Source: Escherichia coli
GTDB lineage: Bacteria; Pseudomonadota; Gammaproteobacteria; Enterobacterales; Enterobacteriaceae
Length of the DNA: 64,000 nucleotides
Reading direction: 5' to 3' (one strand)
Assembly (NCBI RefSeq): GCF_044324875.1
Contig: NZ_CP172185.1
Below the pieces are notes generated by a model that made no database searches, had not been told where the DNA came from, and saw nothing but the letters and a program-made list of their open reading frames with translations. The translations under genes were made by a program, and so were the position numbers. Below are positions 12,416-47,610 of the stretch, in pieces (the stretch's first letter is position 1; each line of letters starts with the position of its first letter).

Positions 12416-12946
12416 TCAAATAAACCCCTGTTTATTATAAAGTTCTTCAGCGAGAGCTTCCCCGTGCTCATCGAAAAAAGCATCGGCGATAGTTAAATTT
12501 TCTGCCTTAGGATTTGCCGTTATTTTGCTACCATTGGCATCAAATTCGAGCGCGATAGCGGTCTCCGAACCCCACCAGTAATAATAAATTAGCGCAAAAT
12601 TATTTTCCCCTGGCGTAATAAACTTCTCGATTCCCCGCACACAGGCCATGAGTGGCATGAAGATTTCATAGCTCTCTGAGAGAAATATGTGATCCATCGT
12701 GACTATCTGTGTTTCTTTATTAAAGTTGATATGTTCGGCATAAATATTCTTTTCACTTTCACCAGAATTACAAGCTGCAAGATTGTTAAGCATTTTTGCA
12801 GGATCGCCGTACAACCGCTGCTTCTCGATAAACCATGGCAACCAGTCGTCATGGTCTTTGATATTTGTTGCTGGTGAATGGAAAAACTTCTCGAGGTTAC
12901 TCTCGGTAATATGTGCATGAAGAAAAAAGGAAGCCGGTTCACTCAT
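12416..12946 (-). CDS. Hypothetical acidic cytoplasmic protein (176 aa), not recognised
   Basis: Intact ORF with no signal peptide or TM segment; sits in a segment I do not recall from the K-12 mtr-yhbW junction; no family assignment possible by eye. Confidence 0.6.
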   Translation of the reverse strand: MSEPASFFLHAHITESNLEKFFHSPATNIKDHDDWLPWFIEKQRLYGDPAKMLNNLAACNSGESEKNIYAEHINFNKETQIVTMDHIFLSESYEIFMPLMACVRGIEKFITPGENNFALIYYYWWGSETAIALEFDANGSKITANPKAENLTIADAFFDEHGEALAEELYNKQGFI

Positions 12947-28232: not shown

Positions 28233-28709
28233 TTAGTCAGGGATTTGTTCTTTTTGATCGCCAGGGACGTCCTGAATGAAAACATTCACGCCACGTTGTT
28301 TAATAAAACGTAAGTCCGTGAGATCCTGGTCATCGACATAAACTTTACTGCTGATTTGCTTTTTCCCTTCCGAGAAATGCATATTGCCGACGTTGACATC
28401 TTTCAGGTCAATACCACCTTCTACCAATTTACGTACCGTTTGTGGCGTACGGCAAATCAGGAAGATCTTTTGATGCGGTGCAGCTTTGCCGATGACGTTA
28501 ATGGTTTTTTCGATAGTAAAGAAACGAATGCCAAAGCCGTAGGTTTCTGCGGTAATACTCATTAATTTCTGTTGAATATCATCGTTAGCGACAACATCAT
28601 CCACAACTACCAGCAGATTTGCACCGATGGTAGATGTCCAGGTCACGCCAACCTGACCGTGAACCAGACGGTTATCAATACGGGTTAAGAGAATATTTGG
28701 ACTGCTCAT
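28233..28709 (-). CDS. agaB: PTS galactosamine-specific EIIB component AgaB (158 aa)
   Basis: Mannose-family IIB (MSSPNILLTRIDNRLVHGQVG...). Confidence 0.9.
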   Translation of the reverse strand: MSSPNILLTRIDNRLVHGQVGVTWTSTIGANLLVVVDDVVANDDIQQKLMSITAETYGFGIRFFTIEKTINVIGKAAPHQKIFLICRTPQTVRKLVEGGIDLKDVNVGNMHFSEGKKQISSKVYVDDQDLTDLRFIKQRGVNVFIQDVPGDQKEQIPD

Positions 28710-37382: not shown

Positions 37383-37847
37383 TCAATCGGTTTCTTCTGT
37401 CTCTCGGGTGAGGGTTTCCCAGTCGGCAGGAGGATGTCCTCTTTTTAACATTTTGCTGAATACGGTATAAGCATCTGTTTTTTTACCGTAGGTGCGCAGA
37501 GTGTTTTCATCGTTCATCCATCCCAGAATGATGACTTTCTCTTTTTCACTATAACGAAAGAAGAGACGATAACGACCAGCACCAAATTTTACCCGTGACC
37601 AGTCTTTATTTTTCCCAGAGCCTAACGACTTGCCATGACGGAATGCCGGTGATGATGGATTGACCGTGATATGCTCCTCAATCACTTTATGGACTACCGC
37701 CAATAACTTTGTGGCGGCTTTTCTCTGATAATTTTCAGGATCTTTTCCCTTTAATGTCTCGACTTCGGCAACTAAAGCGTCGTAGGTTTCCTGAAAACAG
37801 GGATGAGCATATAGCGCCCAACCATTAACCCTTTGTGGAAAATCCAT
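37383..37847 (-). CDS. yhaV: Type II toxin YhaV (ribosome-dependent mRNA interferase, 154 aa)
   Basis: Translation matches YhaV; start overlaps prlF stop (ATGA). Confidence 0.93.
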   Translation of the reverse strand: MDFPQRVNGWALYAHPCFQETYDALVAEVETLKGKDPENYQRKAATKLLAVVHKVIEEHITVNPSSPAFRHGKSLGSGKNKDWSRVKFGAGRYRLFFRYSEKEKVIILGWMNDENTLRTYGKKTDAYTVFSKMLKRGHPPADWETLTRETEETD

Positions 37848-38330: not shown

Positions 38331-39902
38331 TCAGGTCACCGGTGCCGGGTTAAACACCGCCAGCTGGTTATGCAGCCCCCATTGATCCGAGAAGGTTTTC
38401 TTTTTCCCGCTGGCGACGTCGAGAATAAAGTGGAACAACTTCCAGCCCACCTCTTCAATGCTCTCTTCGCCGGTAGCGATAGTGCCCGCGTTAATATCCA
38501 TTAAATCAAACCAGCGGTTCGCCAGCTCGGTGCGGGTTGCCATTTTAATGACGGGTACCGCCATCAAGCCGTACGGCGTACCACGGCCGGTCGTAAACAC
38601 TTGCACGGTGATACCCGAAGCCACCTGTTGCGTGCCACAGACAAAATCGCTGGCTGGCGTCGCGGCGTAAATTAATCCGCGTTTAGTCGGGCGTTGACCG
38701 GGCGACAGCACTTCAACAATTGCACTTTTACCTGATTTAGCAATGGAGCCGAGTGCCTTCTCTACCACGTTTGCCAGACCGCCTTTCTTGTTGCCCGGCG
38801 AAGGGTTGGCGCTACGGTCGGTTTTTCCCATATTGAGATAGTTATCGTACCACTCCATCTCCTCCAGCAGCCGTTTGCCGACCTCTTCGTTCACTGCGCG
38901 TGGTGTCAGCAGATGGATCGCGTCACGCACTTCCGTGACTTCTGAAAACATCACCGTTGCGCCGCAGCGCACCAGTAGATCAGACGCATACCCAACCGCC
39001 GGGTTTGCCGTTACGCCAGAAAACGCATCGCTACCGCCGCACTGCATGCCGACAACCAGTTCTGAAGCCGGACAGGTTTCTCGCTGCCGTTGATTCAGTT
39101 TGTGCAAATGGCGTTCGGCGACCTGCAAAATATCCTCGACCATGGACTGAAAACCGACATGTTTTTCATCCTGCAAACTGACAATGCTGGCGCTTTCTAC
39201 TGGAATAGCTTGCACATCATCCGTTCCAGTCAGCAGGCGCTCAGGCTGCAACTTTTCACAACCCAGACCAATCACCATTACTTCGCCGCCAAAGTTAGGG
39301 TTCAGCGAAATATTGTGAATGGTACGAATAGGCACAACTGCCGCCGGTGCGTTAATCGCCACGCCACAACCGTACAAATGATTCAGCCCCACCACGCCAT
39401 CGACGTTCGGGTATTTCGGTAGCAGATCGCGTTCAATGATTTTTACTACATAGTCCACCACGCCTGCCACACAGTGGACGCTGGTGGTGATGCCGAGCAG
39501 GTTTTTGGTGCCCACGCTGCCATCGGCATTGCGATAGCCCTCAAAGGTGTATCCTTCCAGCGGCGGTAAGGGTGCCGGGACTTTGGTTGCCAGTGGCAGC
39601 GTGTGTAACGGTGGCGCTTCCGGTAGTACAACCATTGATTCGTCGATCCAGCTTCCGCGTGGGATTGCGCGCACGGCGTAACCAATCACTTCGCCATAAC
39701 GAATAATTTCACCATTAGCCGGAATGTCCAGCAATGCGACTTTATGCCCCTGGGGAATATGTTCAATTAATTCCAGCCCATCCGGAAAACGCGTTCCTGC
39801 TTTCAGGCCATTATCATTAACAATAATTGCCACATTATCTGTGTCGTGAACTTTTATATAAAACGCAGTTGGCGTTTCTTGTCTGATTTCGATGTTGGCC
39901 AT
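38331..39902 (-). CDS. garD: D-galactarate dehydratase GarD (523 aa)
   Basis: Translation matches GarD (SAF domain plus dehydratase domain). Confidence 0.95.
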
Positions 39903-40276
39903 TGTGCAATATTCTCCAGCCAGGGGTTATTAAAATGAGGACCTTGTCTCATTTAAAAATAAATGACTTCATTGGGTGAAATAAGAATGTCAGGAGTTTA
40001 AACGCAGAAATGTGATCAATGTCAATCATTTCAGGGATTGCAGTGCCGCCCGGTAAGGTAAAGCGCAAATCTGTGCTTTAGCGCGCAACCTTATGTGCAT
40101 ATGCTCAAAATAATATTTAAATAGTACTGATTAAATTAGCATTTGCACAATGATTATTATTCTCCCGCTGCTTATACTAATTCCCGAGTTCATTGTCGTA
40201 ACGGCATAAATAAAACTCATAAATAACACCTTCCCCATAATAATAAAAATCAGCATAAGTACCCGAGGTAAATAAA

Positions 40277-41611
40277 ATGATTCTGGACACCGTTGACGTA
40301 AAAAAGAAAGGCGTGCATACCCGCTATTTAATATTACTGATTATTTTTATTGTTACCGCCGTTAACTACGCCGATCGTGCAACGCTGTCTATTGCTGGTA
40401 CCGAAGTGGCAAAAGAGTTGCAGTTAAGTGCGGTTTCGATGGGTTACATCTTCTCCGCTTTTGGCTGGGCCTACCTGCTGATGCAAATCCCCGGCGGCTG
40501 GCTGCTTGATAAGTTTGGTTCGAAAAAAGTTTACACCTACAGCCTCTTTTTCTGGTCGCTATTCACCTTCCTGCAAGGCTTTGTTGATATGTTCCCGCTG
40601 GCCTGGGCAGGGATCTCCATGTTCTTTATGCGCTTTATGCTGGGGTTCTCGGAAGCGCCATCATTCCCGGCGAACGCCCGTATTGTCGCCGCCTGGTTCC
40701 CAACGAAAGAACGTGGTACTGCCTCCGCCATCTTTAACTCGGCGCAATATTTCTCGCTGGCGCTCTTTTCGCCGCTGCTTGGCTGGCTGACTTTCGCCTG
40801 GGGCTGGGAGCACGTCTTTACCGTTATGGGGGTAATTGGTTTTGTGCTGACGGCGCTGTGGATCAAGTTGATTCATAACCCGACAGATCACCCACGTATG
40901 TCTGCGGAAGAGCTGAAGTTTATCTCAGAAAATGGCGCGGTGGTCGATATGGACCATAAAAAGCCGGGCAGTGCGGCAGCAAGCGGTCCCAAACTGCATT
41001 ACATCAAGCAATTGCTCTCTAACCGCATGATGCTGGGCGTATTTTTCGGACAATATTTTATCAACACCATCACCTGGTTTTTCCTCACCTGGTTCCCAAT
41101 TTATCTGGTGCAGGAAAAAGGCATGTCGATTCTGAAAGTGGGTCTGGTCGCCTCGATTCCGGCACTGTGTGGCTTTGCGGGCGGCGTGCTGGGAGGTGTC
41201 TTCTCGGATTATCTGATCAAACGCGGTTTGTCCCTGACCCTGGCACGTAAGCTACCGATTGTGCTGGGAATGTTGCTGGCTTCCACCATCATCTTATGTA
41301 ACTACACCAACAACACCACGCTGGTGGTCATGCTGATGGCGCTGGCTTTCTTTGGCAAAGGATTTGGTGCGCTGGGCTGGCCGGTAATTTCTGACACCGC
41401 GCCGAAAGAGATTGTTGGCCTCTGCGGCGGCGTCTTTAACGTCTTTGGCAATGTTGCCTCCATTGTCACTCCACTGGTGATTGGTTATCTGGTAAGTGAA
41501 CTGCACTCCTTCAATGCAGCACTGGTTTTCGTGGGATGTTCAGCGCTGATGGCGATGGTCTGCTACCTCTTTGTAGTTGGCGACATTAAACGTATGGAAT
41601 TGCAGAAATAA
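40277..41611 (+). CDS. garP: MFS galactarate/glucarate transporter GarP (444 aa)
   Basis: 12-TM MFS anion:cation symporter family. Confidence 0.93.
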   Translation: MILDTVDVKKKGVHTRYLILLIIFIVTAVNYADRATLSIAGTEVAKELQLSAVSMGYIFSAFGWAYLLMQIPGGWLLDKFGSKKVYTYSLFFWSLFTFLQGFVDMFPLAWAGISMFFMRFMLGFSEAPSFPANARIVAAWFPTKERGTASAIFNSAQYFSLALFSPLLGWLTFAWGWEHVFTVMGVIGFVLTALWIKLIHNPTDHPRMSAEELKFISENGAVVDMDHKKPGSAAASGPKLHYIKQLLSNRMMLGVFFGQYFINTITWFFLTWFPIYLVQEKGMSILKVGLVASIPALCGFAGGVLGGVFSDYLIKRGLSLTLARKLPIVLGMLLASTIILCNYTNNTTLVVMLMALAFFGKGFGALGWPVISDTAPKEIVGLCGGVFNVFGNVASIVTPLVIGYLVSELHSFNAALVFVGCSALMAMVCYLFVVGDIKRMELQK

Positions 41612-43413: not shown

Positions 43414-44559
43414 ATGAAAATCGTAATCGCCCCAGACTCTTATAAAGAAAGTTTATCTGCCAGCGAGGTTGCGCAGGCGATAGAAAAAGGATTTCGGGAA
43501 ATTTTTCCTGATGCACAGTACATTTCTGTTCCGGTTGCCGACGGTGGCGAAGGAACGGTGGAAGCGATGATTGCAGCCACCCAGGGTTCCGAACGTCACG
43601 CCTGGGTTACAGGGCCGCTGGGCGAGAAAGTGAATGCCAGTTGGGGGATCTCCGGCGATGGCAAAACCGCGTTTATTGAAATGGCGGCGGCCAGTGGGCT
43701 GGAGCTGGTACCTGCGGAAAAACGTGATCCACTCGTGACCACTTCACGCGGCACAGGCGAGTTAATTCTGCAGGCGCTGGAGAGCGGCGCGACAAACATT
43801 ATTATCGGCATTGGCGGTAGCGCTACAAATGATGGCGGTGCAGGCATGGTACAGGCGCTGGGGGCGAAATTATGCGACGCCAACGGCAATGAAATTGGTT
43901 TTGGCGGCGGTAGTCTTAATACTCTGAATGATATTGATATTTCCGGCCTCGATCCCCGCTTAAAAGATTGCGTCATTCGCGTCGCTTGTGATGTCACCAA
44001 TCCGCTGGTGGGCGATAACGGTGCATCGCGCATCTTTGGCCCACAAAAGGGAGCCAGTGAAGCGATGATTGTTGAGCTGGACAATAACCTCTCTCACTAT
44101 GCCGATGTCATTAAAAAAGCGCTGCATGTTGATGTGAAAGATGTCCCCGGCGCAGGAGCTGCGGGTGGTATGGGCGCGGCGCTGATGGCGTTTCTTGGTG
44201 CGGAACTGAAAAGTGGTATTGAAATCGTCACGACGGCGCTGAATCTGGAGGAACATATTCACGATTGTACGCTGGTGATCACCGGTGAAGGGCGTATTGA
44301 CAGCCAGAGTATTCACGGCAAGGTTCCGATTGGCGTCGCAAACGTGGCGAAAAAGTACCATAAACCGGTGATTGGCATTGCGGGTAGCCTGACCAATGAT
44401 GTTGGCGTTGTACATCAGCATGGCATTGATGCGGTCTTCAGCGTATTGACCAGCATTGGTACGTTGGACGAAGCATTCCGCGGGGCTTATGACAATATTT
44501 ACCGTGCTTCACGTAATATCGCCGCGACACTGGCGATTGGAATGCGCAACGCGGGGTGA
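43414..44559 (+). CDS. garK: Glycerate 2-kinase GarK (381 aa)
   Basis: Glycerate kinase family (MKIVIAPDSYKESLSA...); internal ATG chosen. Confidence 0.9.
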   Translation: MKIVIAPDSYKESLSASEVAQAIEKGFREIFPDAQYISVPVADGGEGTVEAMIAATQGSERHAWVTGPLGEKVNASWGISGDGKTAFIEMAAASGLELVPAEKRDPLVTTSRGTGELILQALESGATNIIIGIGGSATNDGGAGMVQALGAKLCDANGNEIGFGGGSLNTLNDIDISGLDPRLKDCVIRVACDVTNPLVGDNGASRIFGPQKGASEAMIVELDNNLSHYADVIKKALHVDVKDVPGAGAAGGMGAALMAFLGAELKSGIEIVTTALNLEEHIHDCTLVITGEGRIDSQSIHGKVPIGVANVAKKYHKPVIGIAGSLTNDVGVVHQHGIDAVFSVLTSIGTLDEAFRGAYDNIYRASRNIAATLAIGMRNAG

Positions 44560-44591
44560 CAAGGGCGCGCAAACCCTCTATACTGCGCGCC

Positions 44592-44968
<377 letters not shown>

Positions 44969-44977
44969 GTTTTACGT

Positions 44978-45005
44978 AAAAACCCGCTTCGGCGGGTTTT
45001 TGCTT
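44978..45005 (+). terminator. rnpB intrinsic terminator
   Basis: aaaacccgc-ttcg-gcgggtttt hairpin followed by a T-tract. Confidence 0.7.
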
Positions 45006-45074
45006 TTGGTGCACAGGGTAAGATGAATAAATATCTACGGTATTAATAATAGACTTTGTAAGAAATTATTAAGT

Positions 45075-46277
45075 CTATATTGCATTTAAAAGGTCGTAAT
45101 CATACGTATAGTCCTCTCTGGTAAAATATTGCTTCTCTGAGTTATAAGCTTCATATGTGTTATATTTTACGACCTCAAAGCCATTGTCTGGAGAATTTTT
45201 GTCTTTCTCGATTGTATTATCTGGAAGGAATTCCTCTGAGCTAGAGTCCTCTATGTTTAAATCTGTATTGTAATTAATTTTTGGAACGATTAGATAAGCA
45301 TTTTCTTTGACTCTTTCATAATCTTTAATGATTATATCGATGTAATAATCTATTTTTTCTAATGAGAACACTTTCATCTCTGGCAATTTAATTCTGCTCA
45401 AGTAATTGTTAATTTTCGATGAGCTTTTATATATTTCTTTTGTTAATTCATTTTCTAATTGATCTGTTAGAGTTGCTCTTGGTATAGATTCTATAATTGC
45501 AAGCCTCATAATTTTTAATTGTTCTTCGGTAATATCTCCAAGCGCATTTAAACAACTTTCGACAAGCTTAATTTTTTCTTCAGAATACATATCGTTAATG
45601 CTTGTTATAACAGGCGTTATTTTTAGCAAATAATCCCATGAGATTGTGGCGTTTTGTTTTGAGCTAACGAAATTTACCTGAAACATGTTGGCATTAGTAA
45701 AATCTGTGTCATCCAATTTAAAAGGATTTAAAATTGTATTGGCCATATGTTTATCTGTAAAATCATAAAGTTCTAAATCGACATTCCGTAAGTCCAGAGA
45801 GGATAGATCAACTATACCTCCAGTCCCACAACTAAAGATTACGTTCAACCTCCTGATTTCATTGTAAATGTCTTTCAATGGGCAATTAACATTGATATTG
45901 CCTGTGGATATTTCCTGGTTTTTTAACGGTTCATTAATGGTAAGTTCACAGGTATTGTCTGATCGTTGAATAATTCGGGCGTTATAACCAAAAAAATCCA
46001 TACGAAGAGACGAATCATTATAAAGAATTACATTTTGTAAGTACGCTAATTCTTTTTGAAAATCACCAGTGATAACACATTTCCCACCTGGTTGTAACGC
46101 GTTAAGTAAAGTGACCATTTCAATAGAGGTCTGTTTTAGTTTTTCTATGCCTGGTGCTAGTGCTTCGAGGTTATTTCCTATGGGGCTTTCAGGAAGGTCA
46201 TTCATTTTTCGACGGGCTAAATCACTACTAATATCATTACCAATTGATGAAACAGGGGACATTATTTTATCCTTCAT
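45075..46277 (-). CDS. yhaC: Uncharacterised protein YhaC (AT-rich gene)
   Basis: Long Asn/Ile/Lys-rich ORF in a low-GC segment; synteny with K-12 yhaC; start may be the internal ATG at 46262. Confidence 0.8.
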   Translation of the reverse strand: MKDKIMSPVSSIGNDISSDLARRKMNDLPESPIGNNLEALAPGIEKLKQTSIEMVTLLNALQPGGKCVITGDFQKELAYLQNVILYNDSSLRMDFFGYNARIIQRSDNTCELTINEPLKNQEISTGNINVNCPLKDIYNEIRRLNVIFSCGTGGIVDLSSLDLRNVDLELYDFTDKHMANTILNPFKLDDTDFTNANMFQVNFVSSKQNATISWDYLLKITPVITSINDMYSEEKIKLVESCLNALGDITEEQLKIMRLAIIESIPRATLTDQLENELTKEIYKSSSKINNYLSRIKLPEMKVFSLEKIDYYIDIIIKDYERVKENAYLIVPKINYNTDLNIEDSSSEEFLPDNTIEKDKNSPDNGFEVVKYNTYEAYNSEKQYFTREDYTYDYDLLNAI

Positions 46278-46852
46278 AAATAATCAATAAAAATCATTAT
46301 TAAAATGATCGGGTGAAAAAAAGAGAATTTGCCAACAATCTGAAGGAATGGAGGTTTTATTAAAGTACGTAGGGGGGTTAAGATGGCTTCTTTTCGGGTG
46401 AATTTTGCACAATACTTAGAAATCGTCTCCTTAATACACTCCAGCCCTTTTTTATTGACGGCTGAGCAAGTACATTGTTCGCCAAAAGGTGCAAAAGTGC
46501 CTACATCTAATGTTTGTATGATATAATCGTCATGTTCTCCTGTAGAAATATCTATGATGAATGGACTCATATTTTCCGGTTGGATTCGAATCATGACAGA
46601 AGGAACATCGCCTTGATAGAAGTTCAATGCAGTAATTGCAGATAATACTCTCCGCAGTTCATTACTTATACTGTATATTTTATTAACGTCATTGGTGGAG
46701 ACAATTTCTGCAAACTTTCTTTTTACCGTCCAATAATCAATATTTCTGTTGTGATTGTTAACCACTGCGTGCATTGGCGGGATTGAAGGGTGAAAAATAT
46801 GTGCAATTGGGAAGCCTTTCATTGATGCCTGCCTTGTCATCATGACAAACAA
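46274..46852 (-). CDS. yhaB: Uncharacterised protein YhaB
   Basis: ORF immediately upstream of yhaC in a low-GC segment; start codon uncertain (several in-frame Met near the N-terminus). Confidence 0.75.
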   Translation of the reverse strand: MFVMMTRQASMKGFPIAHIFHPSIPPMHAVVNNHNRNIDYWTVKRKFAEIVSTNDVNKIYSISNELRRVLSAITALNFYQGDVPSVMIRIQPENMSPFIIDISTGEHDDYIIQTLDVGTFAPFGEQCTCSAVNKKGLECIKETISKYCAKFTRKEAILTPLRTLIKPPFLQIVGKFSFFHPIILIMIFIDYL

Positions 46853-47077
46853 TAATAGATGCTTATTTTCCTAGCACGGCACTTTCGCACTATCAAAAAA
46901 CGCTCATTTACCCGGCATTACAGTAAACGAAGCAACATTCTGTGGCCTACGCCGATCAAAAGCTCTGTGAAAATTCCCCTTGTTGTCTTTGGCTGACCTT
47001 ATCGCGGCGACCAGCAATTATTCGTTTTGTGATCCTCAACACAAAATGCTATTCGTCACCTATGAGGGGAGAAGAAT

Positions 47078-47434
47078 TTATGGAAAACGATTGCATTCAC
47101 AAAATGACGTCCTGTCAGAAGAGAAAAAGTTGACGTTAATCAATTGTTCGAGATGATCAATACCTGTATTCGAAATTTTAACATATTGATAAAATAAATG
47201 TTTGTTCTCCAACAAATAGCGTGAAAAAATGTGACGTGCCGCATTATTTATCGCTGAAAATGATTTATTTATAATAAAATTTGAGAACTTGCTCATTAAA
47301 TTTAACTCAAAATTTGCCTGGTAATTATCCGGTAATTGCTTGAAATATGGTCTCAGCCCCTTTTTTGTATTAACCACATAACGAATGATGTTATCGCCAT
47401 AAAATATGGTTATCCCCGTCATTTTTTTTGACAA
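47078..47434 (-). CDS. tdcR: Putative tdc operon activator TdcR (length/start uncertain)
   Basis: AT-rich ORF divergent from tdcA, at the position of tdcR; the true product is probably shorter than the 118-aa track ORF. Confidence 0.5.
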   Translation of the reverse strand: MSKKMTGITIFYGDNIIRYVVNTKKGLRPYFKQLPDNYQANFELNLMSKFSNFIINKSFSAINNAARHIFSRYLLENKHLFYQYVKISNTGIDHLEQLINVNFFSSDRTSFCECNRFP

Positions 47435-47531
47435 AAATCAGGGTTTATGCTGATTTTTATACTTTAACTTATTGATATATAAAGATATTTAATTGGAATA
47501 ACGATGCCCTGGAAAGTATTGAAAGTTAATT

Positions 47532-47547
47532 TGTGAGTGGTCGCACA
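47532..47547. promoter_or_regulatory. CRP-binding-site-like palindrome (TGTGA-N6-GCACA) in the tdc promoter region
   Basis: ttgtgagtggtcgcacat about 70 bp upstream of tdcA; the tdc operon is known to be CRP-dependent. Confidence 0.5.
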
Positions 47548-47610
47548 TATCCTGTTCATTTCATTTTGATACACTTCATGCCGTCAATGAGGTAATTAAC
47601 GTAGGTCGTT

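Follow-up and report, generated by a model that had tools for sequence, protein, structure and literature searches.

Among the closest described systems to the locus reported here is the foreign DNA that H-NS silences in Escherichia coli, including the 'promoter islands' of strain K-12 (Panyukov & Ozoline 2013; Oshima 2006; Kahramanoglou 2011). The locus comprises three minus-strand genes, yhaC, yhaB and tdcR, which lie between rnpB and the tdc operon in a 64,000-nucleotide stretch of E. coli DNA (contig NZ_CP172185.1), hereafter called the window. The region is already known: yhaC-yhaB-tdcR is annotated in E. coli, and its AT-richness, H-NS binding and 'young gene' status are in the literature. 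A compilation of K-12 chromatin immunoprecipitation (ChIP) data lists two promoter islands here, of 477 bp at tdcA/tdcR and of 706 bp within yhaC, which are H-NS-bound and called foreign by several predictors (PMC3661553); the islet is thus listed with the 78 promoter islands of K-12 that show H-NS occupancy. Genomic SELEX (systematic evolution of ligands by exponential enrichment) put an H-NS mark on the tdcA/tdcR spacer, the same study reporting a promoter for yhaBC (PMC3946193), and yhaBC has been listed as a young operon (PMC12218254). What is new here is the composite age of the segment, its context beside an rnpB attachment site, the patterns of selection and decay in its genes, and the lack of codon-level constraint in tdcR. 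We consider it likely that the segment between the rnpB 3' end and the tdc promoter is a composite, lineage-restricted stretch of AT-rich DNA which behaves as xenogeneic, H-NS-coated DNA.

Like other H-NS-silenced foreign DNA, the islet is AT-rich, dense in promoter-like sites and A/T tracts, and restricted to a lineage. Unlike typical examples it is only 2.6 kb long, lacks mobility genes and appears to consist of two layers of different age. All three open reading frames (ORFs) proposed from the sequence alone were recovered, at 45075-46277 (400 amino acids), 46274-46852 (192 amino acids) and 47078-47434 (118 amino acids, TTG start), and the base composition ascribed to them was confirmed. 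The GC (guanine plus cytosine) content of 44969-47610 is 0.341 against 0.509 across the window, which makes it the minimum among all windows of 2642 bp (mean 0.509, standard deviation 0.039). The profile stands at 0.61 over rnpB and then at 0.28-0.40 from 45000 to 47600. YhaC is encoded at a GC of 0.325-0.327, with third-position GC (GC3) of 0.290-0.292 and a summed Asn, Ile and Lys fraction of 0.270; the corresponding values for yhaB are 0.359-0.365, 0.328-0.342 and 0.249. The other 53 ORFs of at least 150 amino acids in the window average 0.522 ± 0.039, 0.560 ± 0.063 and 0.143 ± 0.033, respectively, so that yhaC and yhaB lie outside the range of their neighbors as 3-5 standard deviation outliers on all three measures. 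The GC of tdcR is 0.301 and that of the tdcR-tdcA spacer 0.322. The left edge of the islet is sharp (rnpB GC 0.618), while the right edge is a gradient, tdcA (0.427) and tdcB (0.463) both being mildly low. A/T runs of at least 7 occur at 22.3 per kb in the islet against 4.9 per kb elsewhere (4.5 times denser) and TpA is twice as frequent as in the rest of the window, features which are compatible with H-NS binding.

The case for two layers comes from the distribution of the genes and from an empty site. A search of 5.8 billion protein clusters found relatives of YhaC and YhaB solely in E. coli and Shigella, and a profile search of 1.84 billion representatives matched, outside these two, only generic pentapeptide-repeat proteins. 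TdcR is confined to Escherichia, namely E. coli, Shigella, E. ruysiae and Escherichia sp. E4930. The gene order in E. ruysiae (L012-L014), E4930 (L015) and a metagenome lineage (L092) is tdcA, tdcR, rnpB, garK, with yhaB and yhaC absent. The match to the window extends past rnpB as far as 45039 and picks up again at about 46976-47014; between rnpB and tdcR these lineages have copies of the rnpB-3' repeat only, with no gene remnants. A deletion class within E. coli, in contrast, keeps stubs of both genes, the first 103 nt of yhaB and the 3' end of yhaC, as well as an internal piece of 63 nt. Because the sister species carry no remnants of yhaBC but keep tdcR, approximately 1.95 kb of E. coli/Shigella-only DNA (45030-46975, boundaries ±30 bp; yhaC, yhaB and about 150 bp upstream of yhaB) appears to have been gained on the E. 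coli lineage. By the same comparison tdcR, the tdc control region and the CRP-type palindrome TGTGATCCTCAACACA between tdcR and yhaB (47028-47043), which is kept in species without yhaBC, would be older than the insertion.

At the left junction of the E. coli-specific DNA lies a truncated second copy of the rnpB-3' repeat (45021-45039, plus strand), recognized as a direct repeat, and homology to E. ruysiae and E4930 ends with it at 45039. Since this junction (…TTTTGGTGCACAGGGTAAGATGAAT followed by AAATATCTACGG…) is common to the window, K-12 and the most divergent haplotype (L006), it points to one insertion event; separate acquisition of the divergent haplotype was considered and is disfavored by the common junction. 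No phage copies of yhaBC were found and there were no PADLOC or PHROG matches, and a defence-system or phage origin was rejected. Matches labelled as 'plasmid' were limited to three chromosome-sized records (4.8-4.9 Mb) and one non-mobilizable record of 354 kb. A scan of 100,044 species-representative genomes with a YhaC pattern returned two E. coli contigs only and is uninformative on other Escherichia species. Both of these yhaC-bearing contigs (L010, L011) are filed under Collinsella and Bacteroides metagenome-assembled genomes, where they are mis-binned contamination.

The sequence-only reading had proposed an old, horizontally acquired segment comprising all three genes. The segment is lineage-restricted (yhaBC to E. 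coli/Shigella, TdcR to Escherichia), which supports that reading, but a single islet of one age does not stand. We suggest instead that a first part (approximately 45030-46975) would be a single old insertion, confined to E. coli/Shigella and carrying a two-gene operon, and that a second part (approximately 46976-47610) would be an older piece, common to the sister Escherichia species, with a 72-codon tdcR and the divergent tdc control region. Useful by-products of this work are the two-layer dating of the islet by a clean empty-site comparison and the recognition of the rnpB 3' end as a hotspot of integration and rearrangement.

The rnpB gene itself (44592-44968, plus strand; Rfam RF00010, 318.6 bits) forms the GC-rich left border. 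Twelve of 5426 complete genomes carry an element of about 8 kb precisely at its 3' terminus, with genes for a tyrosine integrase, a primase-helicase, a recombinase and a zinc-ribbon protein. The last 20 or so nucleotides of rnpB (CTTATCGGTCAGTTTCACCT) recur at the far end of this element and constitute the attachment (att) core common to attL and attR in L098. Because the element sits at the rnpB terminus with this core repeated at its far end, the rnpB 3' end is a working integrase attachment site. The element occupies positions 1556-9310 of L098 and 6570-9900 of L004, at the equivalent of window position 44969; in L004, IS26 has subsequently removed yhaC through tdcG. Our literature search returned nothing relevant on rnpB as an att site in E. 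coli.

The spacer between rnpB and yhaC is likewise unsettled. In K-12 it contains 3.5 copies of a 113-bp unit which duplicates the rnpB 3' end and terminator, and the window holds about 1.2 copies, so that its spacer measures 106 bp against 613 bp in K-12. The 113-bp repeat of K-12 was reportedly described by Reed and Altman in 1983. A terminator scan located the rnpB terminator hairpin, which belongs to this repeat unit, at 44976-45003 (plus strand). Across strains the spacer is hypervariable (44969-45074 in the window; L005:4347-4739; L099:870-2534), with repetitive extragenic palindromic (REP) elements and an IS621 insertion in other strains.

These features recall the genomic islands that P4-type integrases insert at tRNA and tmRNA genes, since the yhaBC insertion likewise adjoins duplicated copies of the 3' end of a structured RNA. 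The differences are that the target is rnpB rather than a tRNA, and that yhaBC has neither an integrase nor a right-side att repeat. As it lacks an integrase and shows just a truncated copy of the repeat at the left junction, the window does not qualify as such an RNA-gene island, as the 8-kb element of L098 does. We infer that yhaBC arrived through the rnpB-3' hotspot by recombination and that any mobility genes would have been lost later.

Selection on the individual genes was estimated from the window, K-12, other genomes and 82 metagenome contigs. The first 150 codons of yhaB have a ratio of nonsynonymous to synonymous substitution rates (dN/dS) of about 0.08 (range 0.03-0.2) and variable sites distributed 6/6/23 over the three codon positions. 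For yhaC the ratio is 0.27-0.37 and the distribution 44/39/80. By comparison tdcA, tdcB and garK have ratios of 0.01-0.04 and a strong third-position excess. Judged by these patterns yhaB is a genuine gene under purifying selection, and yhaC is coding but relaxed.

The window yhaB (46274-46822, minus strand) is a 182-residue variant of the 179-residue K-12 protein, with just two substitutions up to residue 151 and a different frame thereafter. A deletion of one nucleotide after a run of six C residues (about 46372; the run lies in 46366-46380) re-frames its last 31 or so residues, and the K-12 tail persists in the window as an out-of-frame ORF at 46284-46412. There are at least three C-terminal frame variants of YhaB, and because each is common in E. 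coli only the first 150 or so residues look constrained. YhaB would be a compact protein with purifying selection acting over that part.

The yhaC gene is annotated at 45075-46262 (minus strand; 395 residues from MSPV; NCBIfam NF007262, 857 bits against a cut-off of 765), the 400-residue ORF beginning at an additional ATG at 46277 which K-12 lacks. Residues 61-145 of its product are the most constrained (dN/dS 0.14-0.19), and the acidic tail (301-370) is near-neutral at 0.35-0.9. The gene is disrupted in 19 of 44 full-length copies, against 4 of 61 for tdcA, a count to which a few low-coverage contigs probably contribute sequencing errors. At least eight independent lesions were seen, among them a +1 insertion at nt 1093, a 10-bp deletion at 1034, a -1 change in an A-run at 905, nonsense codons 116 and 209, and deletions of 4 and 23 bp. 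At least 80% of yhaC is present in 4314 of the 5426 complete genomes and remnants only in about 1087 (approximately 20%); even the closest complete genome (99.0% identity over a 3.3-kb query) has a yhaC frameshift. Since yhaC is deleted, frameshifted or truncated in many lineages, it is now dispensable. It would be decaying in these, with a few intact but very divergent haplotypes persisting.

The third gene, tdcR, is of a different kind. The suspicion, voiced from the sequence alone, that the product is shorter than the 118-residue ORF proved correct, since RefSeq and NCBIfam use 72 residues (47078-47296, minus strand; NCBIfam NF008507, 170.8 bits against a cut-off of 100, residues 1-72 of 72). 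Reading from the furthest upstream start, a TTG at 47434, yields the 118-residue form. Starting from an ATG at codon 5 yields the 114-residue product of older annotations, which is still frequent in gene calls, and starting from an ATG at codon 47 yields the 72-residue product of RefSeq K-12 (NP_417589.4) and of the Prokaryotic Genome Annotation Pipeline (PGAP). The 46 upstream codons (47297-47434), which overlap the tdcR/tdcA control region and whose coding capacity is not conserved, are open in most E. coli (88 loci). They are interrupted by stop codons in divergent L006-type E. coli, E. ruysiae and E4930, and the 72-codon part is open in all three. Because of these stops the long form is not conserved, and the 118-residue ORF appears to be an artefact of ORF calling. 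Our literature search found nothing relevant on ribosome profiling of tdcR.

Within the 72 codons we found none of the usual signs of selection on a protein. The dN/dS is 0.6-0.7 overall and 0.85-1.16 between deep lineages, although with only 72 codons these values are noisy. Variable sites are spread 21/19/18 over the codon positions, and this differs from even the relaxed pattern of yhaC (P=0.004). Natural nonsense alleles occur in E. coli, and six successive codons close to the C-terminus of E. ruysiae TdcR are changed in a way that resembles a compensated frameshift. Conservation across Escherichia is blocky, with stretches of 30-75 nt invariant at all codon positions and free variation between them. 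The invariant blocks include 47080-47113, 47130-47190 and 47262-47312, the last of which spans the start codon. The second holds an FNR-like site, TTGATTAACGTCAA (47130-47143, minus strand), in a block of about 75 nt that is near-invariant across species. This exact sequence is an FNR ChIP target in K-12, assigned there to 'yhaB' (PMC1802558), and a CRP footprint has been reported at the K-12 equivalent of the palindrome at 47028-47043 (PMC12871828). Under random substitution at the observed divergence, the tdcR ORF stays open 34-45% of the time, and 5% of shuffled versions of the 635-bp region contain an ATG-initiated ORF of at least 72 codons. A conserved RNA structure behind the invariant blocks was considered and rejected (fold z-score +0.93, covariation term +0.33).

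Two sequences in and upstream of tdcR are invariant across Escherichia and resemble transcription-factor sites. One is the palindrome ATCAATAT-N15-(A/G)TATTGAT at 47155-47190, and the other is GTTATCGCCATAAAATATGGTTATC at 47390-47414, upstream of tdcR and within the divergent tdcR-tdcA control region (47297-47610).

Given the invariant blocks and the absence of codon periodicity, the sequence comparison suggests that the main constraint in the tdcR region is on DNA-binding sites and not on the protein. The older part of the islet would then be constrained mainly at the DNA level, through binding sites for CRP, FNR and others. TdcR has no recognizable DNA-binding domain, Pfam giving a chance BESS match only (E 0.086) and PHROG and PADLOC none. 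With dN/dS of 0.6-1.16 and nonsense alleles, it also lacks the purifying selection expected of a helix-turn-helix activator. Weighing on the other side, Schweizer and Datta in 1989 and Hagewood et al. in 1994 reportedly obtained genetic evidence for a trans-acting TdcR that activates tdcABC. The pattern may be compatible with a small TdcR protein, which our data do not disprove. Perhaps selection does not keep tdcR as a protein-coding gene, or has ceased to, and the region is cis-regulatory DNA upstream of the tdc promoter with FNR-like, CRP and other palindromic sites, its ORF being open largely by chance; we put this forward tentatively, as the less probable outcome. If it were true, the textbook 'transcriptional activator TdcR', a transcription factor in regulatory databases which bears no evolutionary mark of a protein-coding gene, would need re-examination. 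The point matters for the tdc operon, which serves the utilization of threonine and serine in the gut. IS5 insertions into the spacer between tdcA and tdcR have repeatedly been selected in the mouse gut (PMC7518454), a pattern that would be typical of relief from silencing. We regard the lack of protein-level constraint in tdcR as the most interesting outcome of the analysis, followed by species-deep yhaBC haplotypes beside a live rnpB attachment site.

Those haplotypes fall into three groups. The window type is the less common allele, present in 1168 of the 5426 complete genomes at 95-99% nucleotide identity to the window. The K-12/O157 type has about 91-92% nucleotide and 88% amino acid identity to the window; K-12 itself is at 92.0% and 88% in yhaC. 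A rare group of 19 genomes has 77% nucleotide and 63% amino acid identity in yhaC and is paired with a YhaB of 77% identity. The flanking genes of this rare haplotype are 97-98.5% identical to those of the window, and identity rises outward from yhaC (76.9%) through yhaB (83.2%) and tdcR (92.2%) to tdcA (98.5%). In the same haplotype (L006-L009) the tdcR stop codon is altered and the ORF runs on. Allele P0029 is a recombinant of two YhaC classes. In these respects the locus resembles hypervariable loci such as the O-antigen rfb/gnd region and the hsd immigration control region, which are likewise far more divergent than their flanks and yield recombinants. Unlike at those loci, the divergent yhaBC haplotype is rare, many alleles are simply inactivated, and no function or selective agent is known.

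Such divergence might be kept by balancing or diversifying selection if yhaBC were a conflict module acting in anti-phage, inter-bacterial or host interactions. Haplotypes of 63% amino acid identity at a single locus between nearly identical flanks, the recombinant allele and frequent gene loss would suit this explanation, as would the high rank of yhaC among 'positively selected' E. coli genes in a published scan (PMC9110714). We nevertheless find it doubtful. When YhaC was scanned by segment no region had dN/dS above 1, the maximum of 0.9 falling in the acidic tail; neither PADLOC, PHROG nor Pfam gave a match; and the divergent haplotype occurs in only 19 of 5426 genomes. Recombination between old alleles can mimic positive selection, and recombination between divergent yhaC alleles could be the source of the published signal.

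A second explanation takes its strength from the same depth of divergence. Synonymous divergence (dS) between the yhaBC haplotype classes is 0.58-0.63, as deep as the split between E. coli and E. ruysiae at garK (0.57) and deeper than at tdcA (0.37). The pair might then be ancestral to Escherichia, E. ruysiae and E4930 having lost it precisely; the rnpB-3' repeats could, for instance, have recombined in a spacer that is recombination-prone, with a variable repeat copy number and, beside it, a large deletion class in E. coli. We hold this to be unlikely, since no relative of YhaB or YhaC turned up in any other genus or Escherichia species in the searches of clusters and representatives, and since the sister species retain no remnants whereas the E. 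coli deletion class keeps its 5' yhaB and 3' yhaC stubs. The deep haplotypes could be old balanced alleles, imports from an unsampled lineage with the same insertion, or a result of faster evolution of silent AT-rich DNA.

Several points weigh against the account preferred here, that of a horizontally gained yhaBC beside an older tdcR region in a composite H-NS-coated segment. The haplotype dS of about 0.6 sits awkwardly with an insertion after the species split, unless substitutions accumulate more quickly in silent AT-rich DNA. In the window the inserted 1.95 kb are not flanked by a direct repeat and come with neither integrase nor transposase, and a search for target-site duplications or att repeats around them gave none that were convincing. 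Since no donor sequence is present in any database searched, the horizontal origin is argued from distribution and composition. The empty-site comparison covers E. ruysiae, E4930 and L092 among the relatives of E. coli. The H-NS binding data come from K-12 and not from this haplotype, and silencing in the present strain is presumed from them.

That all three genes form one horizontally acquired islet of a single age, as first proposed, agrees with their uniformly low GC and with the published predictors that call both the tdcA/tdcR spacer and yhaC foreign (PMC3661553). It is largely refuted, and now unlikely, because tdcR and its flanking CRP site occur in E. ruysiae and E4930 where yhaB and yhaC are absent without remnants, and because the three ORFs evolve under sharply different selection regimes. 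Least probable of all is that no horizontal transfer took place and that local mutational bias in poorly expressed DNA beside rnpB produced ORFs which are de novo or not real genes; the missing donor, the unconstrained tdcR with its chance of arising in shuffled DNA, and the lack of a confident AlphaFold fold for YhaB or YhaC would fit it, but the third-position excess and dN/dS of 0.08 and 0.27 mark yhaB and yhaC as real coding genes, a de novo origin is improbable for a 395-residue protein that contains a pentapeptide-repeat segment, and the 1.95 kb is missing as a block from the sister species.

As had been stated at the outset from the sequence alone, neither yhaC nor yhaB has an established function. 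YhaC is acidic (pI 4.5). Its residues 146-210, approximately (45633-45827, minus strand), comprise 10-12 pentads of the type [x][D/N][L/F/M][x][x], or about 2.5 coils, and no other part of YhaC found relatives beyond Escherichia. A profile matched about 50 pentapeptide-repeat proteins at residues 140-215 (best E 5e-11, summed over repeats), and all eight matches that were checked are PF00805 proteins. YhaC itself remains below the Pfam gathering thresholds for PF00805 (12.8 against 20.2 bits) and PF13599 (14.9 against 38 bits), and the K-12 and divergent alleles have similar sub-threshold scores. Matches of this core to pentapeptide solenoids in the Protein Data Bank (PDB; Np275/276 and designed proteins) were marginal (E 0.03-1). 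YhaC shares with Np275/Np276, Qnr and MfpA the pentad pattern and differs from them in its sub-threshold Pfam scores and in that the repeat is flanked by unrelated N- and C-terminal regions. The C-terminus, YTYDYDLLN[A/E]I, is unchanged even in the 63% allele. The protein would begin with an N-terminal domain, followed by the short pentapeptide-repeat-like core and a helical region, and close with the near-neutral acidic tail that ends in this motif.

AlphaFold2 models of both proteins were unusable, with a mean predicted local distance difference test (pLDDT) score of 33.4 for YhaC (18-sequence alignment) and 36 for YhaB (8-sequence alignment). No relatives of YhaB beyond E. coli/Shigella and no domains were detected; its homologs carry Pfam PF27690 (UCP004546) in precomputed annotation. 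A Bud32/OspG-like mini-kinase was considered for YhaB and rejected, the NCBIfam match (E 0.0044) not being reproduced with the divergent allele, with Pfam or with sequence and profile searches of the PDB. It is a speculative thought, to which we attach little probability, that the two work as a pair of accessory proteins, the YhaC solenoid offering a scaffold for binding or mimicry.

In the window the gene order is garK, rnpB, then yhaC, yhaB and tdcR, followed by tdcA-G, which reads in reverse of the K-12 orientation. Relative to one another, tdcR-yhaB-yhaC (b3119-b3121) and rnpB (b3123) have the same order and orientation in K-12 MG1655, which also has the same 72-codon tdcR, with five substitutions in 72 residues, and the same CRP and FNR-like sites. 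A 171-residue ORF opposite rnpB (44499-45014, minus strand) is a spurious product of a GC-rich RNA gene. Elsewhere in the window mildly low GC was noted in a 176-residue ORF at 12416-12946 with no Pfam match (0.41), in a phosphotransferase system (PTS) sorbose-family IIB gene at 28233-28709 (0.43) and in the yhaV toxin gene at 37383-37847 (0.44). A spacer with a GC of 0.37 occupies 39800-40400, between an ORF ending at 39902 (minus strand) and one starting at 40277 (plus strand), which correspond to garD and garP by synteny with L003.

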